The notes under the pieces: model-generated
The model's input: the letters and a program-made list of their open reading frames with translations, nothing else
Told to the model about the DNA's origin: nothing
Database searches by the model: none
Position numbers and translations under genes: made by a program
Shown: positions 29,868 through 42,854 of the stretch, in pieces
Layout: each line of letters starts with the position of its first letter
Position numbering within the stretch: position 1 is the first letter of the stretch
Assembly (NCBI RefSeq): GCF_058153355.1
Contig: NZ_CM177019.1
DNA length: 64,000 nt
Reading direction: 5' to 3' (one strand)

Positions 29868-31170
<1,303 letters not shown>

Positions 31171-31200
31171 CATGCCTGCAATCTGGGAAACCGGGGTAGA

Positions 31201-31289
<89 letters not shown>

Positions 31290-32741: not shown

Positions 32742-33758
32742 ATGAACGCTAAGATAATTGCCTCGCTGGCCTTCACCAGCATGTTCAGCCTCAGCACCCT
32801 GTTAAGTCCGGCGCACGCCGAAGAGCAGGAAAAGGCGCTGAATTTCGGCATTATTTCAACGGAATCACAGCAAAACCTGAAACCGCAATGGACGCCGTTC
32901 TTACAGGATATGGAGAAGAAGCTGGGCGTAAAGGTCAACGCCTTCTTTGCCCCGGACTACGCGGGCATTATCCAGGGGATGCGCTTCAATAAAGTGGATA
33001 TCGCCTGGTACGGCAATCTATCGGCGATGGAAGCGGTGGATCGCGCCAACGGTCAGGTCTTCGCCCAGACGGTCGCGGCGGATGGATCGCCGGGTTACTG
33101 GAGCGTGTTGATCGTCAACAAAGACAGTCCGATCAACAACCTGAACGATCTGCTGGCGAAGCGTAAAGATCTCACCTTTGGCAATGGCGATCCTAACTCC
33201 ACCTCTGGCTTCCTCGTCCCCGGCTACTACGTCTTCGCCAAAAACAATATCTCCGCCAGCGACTTCAAGCGCACCGTCAACGCCGGGCATGAAACCAACG
33301 CGCTGGCCGTCGCCAACAAGCAGGTGGATGTGGCGACCAACAACACCGAGAACCTCGACAAGCTGAAAACCTCCGCACCGGAGAAGCTCAAAGAACTGAA
33401 GGTGATCTGGAAATCGCCGCTGATCCCAGGCGATCCGATCGTCTGGCGCAAAAATCTTTCCGAAACCACCAAAGACAAGATCTACGACTTCTTTATGAAC
33501 TACGGCAAAACGCCGGAAGAGAAAGCGGTGCTGGAGCGCCTGGGCTGGGCCCCGTTCCGCGCCTCCAGCGACCTGCAACTGGTGCCGATTCGCCAGCTCG
33601 CGCTGTTTAAAGAGATGCAGGGCGTGAAAGGCAATAAAGGGCTGAATGAGCAGGACAAGCTGGCAAAAACCAGCGCCATTCAGGCGCAACTGGATGACCT
33701 GGACCGCCTGAACAACGCGTTAAGCGCGATGAGTTCGGTGAGTAAAGCGGTGCAGTAA
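32742..33758 (+). CDS. phnD: Phosphonate ABC transporter periplasmic binding protein PhnD
   Basis: Signal peptide plus binding-protein fold; recognised sequence. Confidence 0.93.
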   Translation: MNAKIIASLAFTSMFSLSTLLSPAHAEEQEKALNFGIISTESQQNLKPQWTPFLQDMEKKLGVKVNAFFAPDYAGIIQGMRFNKVDIAWYGNLSAMEAVDRANGQVFAQTVAADGSPGYWSVLIVNKDSPINNLNDLLAKRKDLTFGNGDPNSTSGFLVPGYYVFAKNNISASDFKRTVNAGHETNALAVANKQVDVATNNTENLDKLKTSAPEKLKELKVIWKSPLIPGDPIVWRKNLSETTKDKIYDFFMNYGKTPEEKAVLERLGWAPFRASSDLQLVPIRQLALFKEMQGVKGNKGLNEQDKLAKTSAIQAQLDDLDRLNNALSAMSSVSKAVQ

Positions 33759-33772
33759 TGTGCTCGATCGGT

Positions 33773-33862
33773 CCCCTCTCCCTTGAGGGAGAGGGTTAGG
33801 GTGAGGGGGGAAATACGCACGCTGATGCCCTCACCCCGGCCCTCTCCCACAGGGAGAGGGAG
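33773..33862. repeat. GC-rich compound palindromic intergenic element between phnD and phnE
   Basis: Nested inverted repeats ccctctccc/gggagaggg (twice) flanking ttagggtgagggg...gccctcacccc. Confidence 0.7.
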
Positions 33863-33884
33863 AAAACATTAAACGGAGCCAAAC

Positions 33885-34664
33885 ATGCAAACCATCACCA
33901 TCGCCCCACCCAAGCGCAGCTGGTTCTCGCTTCTGAGCTGGGCCATTGTTCTCGCCGTGCTGGTCGTCTCGTGGCAGGGCGCGGAAATGGCCCCGCTCAC
34001 GCTGATTAAAGACGGCGGCAACATGGCGACGTTCGCCGCCGACTTCTTCCCGCCCGATTTCAGCCAGTGGCAGGATTACCTCACCGAAATGGCCGTCACG
34101 CTGCAAATCGCCGTCTGGGGCACCGCGCTGGCAGTCGTTCTCTCCATCCCCTTCGGCCTGATGAGCGCCGAAAACCTGGTGCCGTGGTGGGTGTACCAGC
34201 CCGTGCGCCGTCTGATGGACGCCTGCCGCGCCATTAACGAAATGGTCTTCGCCATGCTGTTCGTGGTCGCCGTCGGTCTCGGGCCGTTCGCTGGCGTGCT
34301 GGCGCTGTTTATTCACACCACCGGCGTGCTTTCCAAACTGCTTTCCGAAGCGGTGGAAGCGATTGAACCCGGCCCGGTGGAAGGTATTCGCGCCACTGGT
34401 GCCAACAAGCTCGAAGAGATCCTCTACGGCGTGCTGCCGCAGGTGATGCCGCTGCTGATCTCCTACTCCCTCTATCGCTTCGAATCCAACGTCCGTTCGG
34501 CCACCGTTGTTGGCATGGTCGGCGCTGGCGGGATCGGCGTCACGCTGTGGGAAGCGATTCGCGGTTTCCAGTTCCAGCAAACCTGCGCCCTGATGGTGCT
34601 GATTATCGTCACGGTCAGCCTGCTGGATTTCCTCTCTCAACGGTTGCGTAAGCACTTTATCTGA
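33885..34664 (+). CDS. phnE: Phosphonate ABC transporter permease PhnE, intact (259 aa)
   Basis: Single uninterrupted ORF with permease features. Confidence 0.9.
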
Positions 34665-42061: not shown

Positions 42062-42820
42062 ATGAGCCTGACCCTCACACTTACTGGCACTGGCGGCGCA
42101 CAGGGCGTTCCCGCATGGGGCTGTGAGTGTGCGGCCTGCGCCAGAGCGCAGCGCTCACCGCAGTATCGCCGCCAGCCATGCAGCGGCGTCGTGAAGTTTA
42201 ACGAGGCGATCACCCTGATCGACGCCGGGCTGCACGATCTCGCCGATCGCTGGTCGCCCGGATCGTTCCAGCAGTTTTTGCTGACGCACTACCATATGGA
42301 TCACGTGCAGGGGCTGTTTCCGCTGCGCTGGGGCGTGGGCGATTCTATCCCGGTCTACGGCCCGCCGGATGAACAGGGCTGCGACGATCTGTTTAGACAT
42401 CCGGGCCTGCTTGATTTCAGCCACACGGTGGAGCCATTTGTGATGTTTGATTTGCAGGGATTACAGGTCACGCCGCTGCCGCTCAACCATTCGAAACTCA
42501 CTTTCGGCTATCTACTGGAAACGGCACATAGCCGGGTGGCGTGGCTGTCTGACACCGCAGGCCTGCCGGAAAAAACGGTGAAATTTTTACGCAATAATCA
42601 GCCGCAGGTGATGGTGATTGATTGCAGCCACCCACCGCGCGCGAATTCGCCACGCAATCACTGTGATTTAAACACCGTGCTGGCGCTGAATGAAGTTATC
42701 CGCTCGCCGCGCGTGGTTCTGACACATATCAGCCATCAGCTTGATGTGTGGCTGATGGAGAACGTACTGCCGTCAGGGTTTGAGGCGGGGTTTGATGGGA
42801 TGGAGATTGGGGTGGAGTAA
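42062..42820 (+). CDS. phnP: Phosphoribosyl cyclic phosphodiesterase PhnP (metallo-beta-lactamase fold)
   Basis: HYHMDH motif; last gene of the phn operon. Confidence 0.92.
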
Positions 42821-42854
42821 TGGGTGAGGGGCGATGCCTGCTCTAAACTCAACA

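Follow-up and report, generated by a model that had tools for sequence, protein, structure and literature searches.

The gap between phnD and phnE in the 64,000-nucleotide stretch of DNA analyzed here (the window) almost certainly contains, judging by its sequence, a copy of the dispersed BoxC/PIT/TMECO repeat in its inverted-pair form. The window belongs to E. coli, since the sequences flanking the element are 95-99% identical to RefSeq E. coli genomes, and apart from this 126-nt gap the phnCDEFGHIJKLMNOP operon has no sizeable intercistronic space. By analogy with the REPs that follow binding-protein genes, this copy most likely represents a tolerated or selected intercistronic stem-loop, and it occupies a gap in which palindromic repeats are exchanged with unusual frequency among strains and species.

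Family membership and anatomy of the repeat

TMECO is the motif that was first named BoxC and later re-described by Hoyne and Maher as PIT, for potential intrastrand triplex; the family has been known since 1992, was studied in 2000-2002 and was surveyed in 2015 (Bergler 1992, Hoyne et al. 2000, Holder et al. 2015; PMC4666352). The published TMECO pattern, CCCTCNCCC-N3-6-GGGNGAGGG-N3-GGGNGAGGG (Holder et al. 2015, PMC4666352), is matched with 0 mismatches by both halves of the element, at 33774-33807 on the + strand and at 33828-33860 on the - strand, and by none of 100 shuffles. Neither GTAG nor the y/z REP consensus (GCCGGATG... / ...CTTATCCGGCCTAC) with its imperfect 20-40-nt palindrome was found in 33759-33884. 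The original prediction, which likened the element to BoxC-type repeats and held it not to be a REP, was correct on both points.

Five sites in E. coli K-12 carry two inverted motifs, always one of type A and one of type B (PMC4666352), and the window copy follows this rule, with TTA as the second loop of the + strand motif and CCG as that of the - strand motif. The type A motif equals K-12 TMECO no. 2 at 34 of 35 bases, while the type B motif has exactly the sequence of K-12 TMECO nos. 1 and 4 (Table 1 in PMC4666352). In an alignment with four K-12 pairs, the window element is near-identical to the hrpB-mrcB copy, flanks included. Like the K-12 copies at five loci, it is intergenic, lying between the phnD stop and the phnE start. 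Holder et al. listed 23 TMECO copies in K-12 and 62 loci among 56 strains (PMC4666352), and an old K-12 GenBank annotation contained 33 BoxC copies of 51-59 bp (PMC5172473); the window copy is absent from the list of 23, because K-12 has a BIME at this locus. A genome search for other copies, which had been proposed together with the original prediction, revealed a dispersed family: blastn with a 106-nt query gave matches in 5331 of 5426 E. coli genomes, the median being 11 places in each. Published copy counts extend from 1 in E. coli IHE3034 to 143 in Enterobacter asburiae LF7a.

The coordinates of the element and its surroundings are compiled in Table 1. Two hairpins with the same stem (9-10 bp) that bracket a third inverted repeat had been recognized in the sequence, and this arrangement was recovered by a repeat search; CCCTCTCCC-N1-8-GGGAGAGGG occurs twice in the 64-kb window, both times in the element, and in 0 of 100 dinucleotide shuffles. 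The inner pair, originally given as the 10-mers gggtgagggg/cccctcaccc, is perfect over nine positions, but the tenth places G33808 opposite G33827. Likewise, the sequence at 33773-33862 is as it was described, but the repeat unit is wider, at ~33760-33867 including GTGCTCGATCGGTC and AGAAAAC, because conservation runs beyond the blocks in the alignment with the four K-12 pairs. NAGTC, the last bases of the left terminus, is conserved across genera, flipped copies included, and the central spacer resembles those of the K-12 hrpB-mrcB, Enterobacter, Lelliottia and Kluyvera copies. Past the element, CGGAGCC is the first downstream sequence common to all E. coli alleles. The gene names phnD and phnE assumed for the flanks agree with the RefSeq annotation of homologous loci.

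Table 1. Features of the phnD-phnE region, in window coordinates
Feature	Coordinates	Strand	Basis
phnD, periplasmic phosphonate-binding protein gene	32742..33758	+	ORF; homologous RefSeq loci annotated phnD
phnD stop codon TAA	33756-33758	+	ORF
Left terminus of repeat unit, GTGCTCGATCGGTC	33760..33773	+	Kept in K-12 paired BoxC copies; outside the span originally predicted
TMECO/BoxC motif type A (TTA second loop), CCCTCTCCC-TTGA-GGGAGAGGG-TTA-GGGTGAGGGG	33774..33808	+	Exact match to published pattern
Hairpin 1 within type A motif	33774-33795	+	Repeat search (arms CCCTCTCCCT, 33774-33783, and AGGGAGAGGG, 33786-33795) and DNA folding
Outer inverted repeat, 27 nt	33781-33807 / 33828-33854		Repeat search
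Inner inverted repeat, GGGTGAGGG pairing with CCCTCACCC	33799-33807 / 33828-33836		
Central spacer GGAAATACGCACGCTGAT, 18 nt, loop of long hairpin	33809..33826	.	Sequence and RNA fold
TMECO/BoxC motif type B (CCG second loop), CCCTCTCCCTGTGGGAGAGGGCCGGGGTGAGGGC	33827..33860	-	Exact match to published pattern
Hairpin 2 within type B motif	33840-33860	-	Repeat search (arms CCCTCTCCC, 33840-33848, and GGGAGAGGG, 33852-33860)
Right terminus of repeat unit, AGAAAAC	33861..33867	+	Kept in K-12 copies and in other genera
Predicted long RNA hairpin of the phnD-phnE intercistronic transcript, ~35 bp with small internal loops	33772..33862	+	RNA folding
phnE Shine-Dalgarno GGAG	33875..33878	+	Read from sequence; 6 nt before ATG at 33885, 14 nt past hairpin
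phnE, permease gene, intact, 259 aa	33885..34664	+	ORF; RefSeq annotation of homologous loci

The strong RNA structure that had been anticipated was also predicted: for the RNA of the 126-nt gap, folding gave a single long hairpin with -69.8 kcal/mol (z = -6.74), and 0 of 200 shuffles fold as well. The opposite strand as RNA reaches -67.4 kcal/mol, and as DNA each strand reaches ~-31 kcal/mol by nearest-neighbor folding, which covers Watson-Crick hairpins only. The consensus structure of 18 aligned BoxC copies is the same long hairpin, and 26 of its 30 pairs hardly vary at all; with so little variation in the stem, covariation is uninformative on the RNA structure in either direction. The few pairs that appeared compensatory were dismissed as register shifts in the CCCTCGCCCC subtype. 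A scan of the element found no promoter-like and no terminator-like site, and no T-run follows the stem on either strand; what follows is AGAAAACATTAAAC. No Rfam family reached its gathering threshold, and the best matches, eukaryotic miRNA hairpin models with at most 28 bits against thresholds of 55-168, were rejected as chance-level. Pairing of GUGCUC (33760-33765) with the phnE Shine-Dalgarno region as an anti-Shine-Dalgarno sequence was rejected as well, as the weak helix predicted for it is not conserved in other genera.

Alleles of the gap in E. coli and in other species

The allele shares in E. coli were determined in a systematic sample of 60 rows from 5435 matching records. The full BoxC pair is present in four rows (~7%), collapsed BoxC alleles in 11 (~18%) and alleles without an alignment across the gap, mostly BIMEs, in 44 (~75%), in agreement with a total of 1338 genomes in which query coverage reaches 80% or more. 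Strain Ecol_316 has the same BoxC pair as the window. K-12 and O157 have, at exactly the same position, a two-REP BIME, i.e., a GTAG-preceded REP and an inverted REP with the REP consensus, which folds at -44 to -48 kcal/mol. The gap of strain MSB1_7C contains only CCCTCTCCCACAGGGAGAGGG, the remnant expected of a 66-bp deletion between direct CCCTCTCCC copies, and this collapsed allele still folds (-24 kcal/mol). Strain mip270_22 (L097) displays a different collapse, with the left hairpin and TTA kept, NRZ96052a (L098, 160-223) a single, flipped BoxC hairpin with the asymmetric termini GTTTTCT...GATCGAGCAC, and L6-21 (L099) a BIME with an internal REP deletion. Together, at least six E. coli alleles occur at the gap, including independent deletions between internal direct repeats, and a stem-loop is kept in all of these alleles, at -23 to -48 kcal/mol.

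Single-nucleotide polymorphisms in the flanks are uncoupled from the allele. GPEC1165, which has a BIME, does not differ from the window in the final 222 bp of phnD, yet MFDS1022581 (L096), with an identical element, has 17 SNPs in the preceding 118 bp (window 33587-33704, the phnD 3' end); past this cluster it has 0 SNPs for 400 bp. The cluster looks like a short recombination patch that ends at the repeat. Import of the BoxC allele from another genus was considered and rejected, as the flanks are 95-99% identical to E. coli and 78-85% to other genera. TMECO loci were reported to be more variable than control intergenic sites, and a 'palindrome effect' was described (PMC4666352); the allele variation at the phnD-phnE gap matches both.

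Further differences between strains were noticed in and around the operon. A second BoxC polymorphism lies at its other end, just past the phnP stop (window 42819-42831), where only GGGTGAGGGG is left in the window and K-12 has, by alignment, a ~112-bp insert with BoxC/TMECO no. 22 (K-12 4314285-4314320). The phnE gene, intact in the window, is annotated as a pseudogene in K-12 (phnE1; L001 1944-2782), and the known 8-bp insertion in K-12 phnE, as mentioned in PMC6469041, is consistent with that call. Upstream of the operon, an IS110-family insertion sequence (29947-31230) lies within the yjdM-yjdN REP/BIME of the window, and Ecol_316 has these REPs uninterrupted. It encodes a 326 aa transposase (ORF 30141-31121, + strand) with the Pfam domains DEDD_Tnp_IS110 and Transposase_20, and presumably resembles the REP-targeting IS621.

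For other species, PhnD-based scanning with one genome per species provided the best 80 PhnD loci, in 79 of which phnE was located. They include no Escherichia or Shigella, although E. coli PhnD should match near-perfectly, and the E. coli alleles were taken from RefSeq instead. At least two BoxC blocks occupy the gap in 36 of the 79 species (e.g., Enterobacter, Leclercia, Lelliottia, Kluyvera, Huaxiibacter, Silvania, Yokenella, Pseudenterobacter, Buttiauxella and Pseudocitrobacter), REP-like sequences in 25 (e.g., Citrobacter, Salmonella arizonae, Cedecea and Dryocola) and other hairpins in 16 (e.g., in Atlantibacter, Enterobacillus and Vibrio, besides degenerate BoxC or REP sequences), whereas two species (L083 and L084) have a gap of 22-23 nt without a hairpin. 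A 22-nt gap is present in Enterobacteriaceae LSJC7. A strong stem-loop is thus found in 77 of these 79 loci, and the fold of the gap has a median z of -4.6, with values below -2 in 73 loci. The strict TMECO pattern was matched in 27 loci, each of ~4 kb, and every match falls within the gap.

Across genera, the BoxC pair is present both in the arrangement of the window and as its exact reverse complement, non-palindromic termini included; an arrangement with third blocks facing outward, single hairpins and tandem expansions occur as well. The last BoxC block lies 21-25 nt before the phnE ATG in most loci, which leaves the ribosome-binding site free. The 87-nt BoxC core is 92-97% identical between E. 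coli and other genera, whereas the identity is 78-85% in the 300 nt of phnD and phnE next to it. In Pseudenterobacter timonensis (L031 2560-2740), Buttiauxella izardii (L080 2550-2690) and Leclercia adecarboxylata (L056), the BoxC halves are split by three to four tandem ~40-nt units or by degenerate half-hairpins, and the gap grows to 220-280 nt. Two Pseudocitrobacter loci, of P. faecalis (L012) and P. vendiensis (L013), have a PhnD 99% identical to that of E. coli and share the BoxC flanks of E. coli, which suggests recent transfer of the phn operon or a mislabeled genome. The whole pair is tandemly duplicated in P. faecalis (2518-2768), and P. vendiensis (2518-2578) has a single hairpin with the left (TTGA) loop, while the remnant in E. 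coli MSB1_7C has the right (ACA) loop.

Possible roles of the stem-loop in the phn operon

The best explanation combines the identity as a BoxC pair with an action in the phn mRNA like that of the REP/BIME at the same site, and taken as a whole we consider it somewhat probable; its functional part, viewed separately, is slightly less likely than not and rests on the analogy with REPs. The element would be transcribed inside the phn mRNA and fold into a stem-loop of ~35 bp, which may form a barrier to 3'-to-5' mRNA decay, as is thought for REP/BIME at the same position. The near-perfect duplex of ~35 bp could possibly also be a substrate of RNase III. The upstream phnC-phnD segment would thereby be favored over the permease and lyase genes, with transcription not being terminated. 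In the DNA, the gap would be destabilized by the direct and inverted repeats within the element, which would lead to collapse into a single hairpin, tandem expansion or replacement.

The malE-malF and hisJ-hisQ junctions are examples of REPs after binding-protein genes. Such REPs are the classical case in which upstream mRNA is shielded from 3' exonucleases and the ratio of binding protein to permease is raised (Higgins 1982; Newbury 1987; Higgins, McLaren and Newbury 1988; as cited in PMC12306157). In support of a comparable role, and of the intra-operon RNA stabilizer or attenuator originally suggested, which is plausible, a very stable hairpin is predicted right after the binding-protein gene phnD, and the same spot is taken by a REP/BIME in most E. 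coli and by a hairpin in 77 of the 79 other species. Several observations argue against it. PIT elements had neither promoter nor terminator activity and no effect on RNA polymerase, according to the account of Hoyne & Maher 2002 in PMC4666352, and Holder et al. observed no operon-position bias for TMECO (PMC4666352). The element is found in either orientation at the site, and because L083 and L084 have a short gap without a hairpin, the hairpin is not essential. Moreover, the conserved loops and spacer (92-97% across genera) are not needed by a simple decay barrier, which points to propagation or maintenance of the element itself and not to a host function. The literature was searched for work on the phnD-phnE gap in the phn operon and on processing by RNase III or at REPs, with no relevant result.

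The main rival is a purely selfish or neutral repeat without a role in phn expression, the gap being merely permissive or palindrome-targeted and the families inserting, decaying and replacing one another, which we regard as possible but not probable. The same unit occurs in both orientations with asymmetric termini, between genera and within E. coli (NRZ96052a), which suggests independent insertions; the core is far better conserved than the flanking coding sequence, as expected of a recently or repeatedly inserted element; and the alleles are uncoupled from the flanking SNPs. Palindromic repeats are known insertion targets, and an IS110-family element lies inside a REP 2.5 kb upstream in the same window. 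Published tests of PIT found no function, as far as Hoyne & Maher 2002 is reported in PMC4666352. On the other hand, a strong hairpin is kept in nearly all species of the scan, the stem-loop survives every collapse, and lineage-specific hairpins are present where BoxC and REP are both absent (Atlantibacter, Enterobacillus and Vibrio). The persistence of hairpins is more easily explained if some stem-loop is favored.

Other ways in which the element could influence expression or variation appear less plausible. That the element is a terminator or attenuator, through which phnE and the C-P lyase genes would be expressed less than phnCD, is very improbable, although the hairpin between the two cistrons is very stable and a connection of BIMEs with transcription attenuation has been reported (Espeli et al. 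2001, as listed in PMC8266576). The missing T-run and the empty terminator scan of the element speak against it, as do the PIT elements without terminator activity (Hoyne & Maher 2002, as given in PMC4666352), and no promoter-like site is present here for the 12 downstream genes, which are needed for phosphonate use. Alternatively, the terminating ribosome might be stalled by a stable stem that lies no more than 15 nt from the stop codon, with lower PhnD translation as the result, as has been described for REPs. The stem begins 13-15 nt after TAA (33758 to 33772-33774), and 5-15 nt after it in other genera; REPs less than 16 nt from a stop codon were reported to down-regulate translation (Liang, Rudd and Deutscher 2015, via PMC12306157). 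The distance in the window is, however, at the edge of the reported limit, and the effect was demonstrated for REPs and not for BoxC. Reducing the binding protein would also run counter to the usual stoichiometry of ABC importers. We consider such a brake improbable.

It is similarly doubtful, to the point of being improbable, that the DNA structure matters and not the RNA, with each half forming an intrastrand purine-motif triplex that stalls replication, so that the element generates local variation. TMECO oligonucleotides, identical sequences included, form very stable triplexes in vitro, and TMECO loci vary more than controls (PMC4666352); the phnD-phnE locus is itself highly polymorphic. 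However, no signal of a triplex was obtained with double-stranded TMECO, DMS footprinting in vivo lent no support to a stable one, and 'adaptive instability' was a speculation by Holder et al. (PMC4666352). In the paired form, the deletions are explained by simple pairing as a hairpin or cruciform together with slippage between direct repeats, and REP-bearing alleles at the site vary too, as in L6-21.

A bolder reading can also be formulated, which we consider unlikely. The ~100-bp BoxC pair would be a REPIN-like mobile unit, active still or recently, that is mobilized or maintained by a trans-acting factor and re-enters the gap in either orientation, displacing REP/BIMEs, and it would persist there through selection for a stem-loop between the binding-protein gene and the next cistron. 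If true, this would account for a 92-97% identity across genera next to flanking genes of ~80%.

Comparison with known repeat systems

The element is an ordinary member of a known repeat family, and since the family, the A+B pairing, the variability among strains and the collapse to hairpins are all published, this part of the finding is already known. It shares with BoxC/PIT/TMECO the three-block motif on both strands, the inverted A+B pair, the intergenic position and the single-hairpin collapse in some strains; no essential difference was found, and all testable defining features are present. The picture at the level of the locus, i.e., BoxC in either orientation, REP/BIME and private hairpins in ~80 species, with a core better conserved than the genes, was not found stated in the literature searched and is a modest addition. 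The locus represents a convenient natural experiment: depending on the strain and species, its gap of 60-130 nt is filled by a BoxC pair (either way round), by the collapsed form, by a BIME or by a hairpin private to the lineage, or holds almost nothing. These natural alleles bear directly on the question of a REP-like action of BoxC on mRNA, which goes beyond the negative results in print for promoter and terminator activity. In addition, the far better conservation of the element than of its coding flanks sharpens the question of what propagates or maintains BoxC.

With Rho-independent terminators, the element has in common a GC-rich hairpin downstream of a stop codon, but it differs by the absence of a U-tract, by a far longer stem and by the essential operon genes that follow. 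There is also a likeness to REPINs, which are inverted REP doublets mobilized by RAYT transposases (Bertels & Rainey 2011, as cited in PMC8266576). Two inverted ~35-nt repeats separated by a short spacer fold as a single long hairpin whose small bulges are conserved, singlets resemble decayed doublets, and the copy number varies greatly among related genomes. With regard to a mobile unit, copies at unrelated loci have defined ends in common and both orientations are present at one site, but no clear target-site duplication was seen, as a comparison of the flanks of both orientations yielded only ambiguous TAA/TTAA-like matches. Different from REPINs, the mobility of BoxC is deduced only from both orientations at one site, and we know of no RAYT/TnpA-REP or other mobilizing enzyme for BoxC.

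REPs and BIMEs belong to a different sequence family, as BoxC has neither the GTAG tetranucleotide nor the REP consensus, and an mRNA-stabilizing effect has been demonstrated for REPs and none for BoxC. Nonetheless, the position is the same: both lie straight after a periplasmic binding-protein gene and before a permease gene, both form a stable GC-rich stem-loop that is transcribed but untranslated, as is probably also true of the BoxC copy, and REP/BIME occupies the very same gap in most E. coli, in Citrobacter and in Salmonella arizonae. The phnD-phnE element is REP-like by position and REPIN-like by architecture, and a member of neither group.
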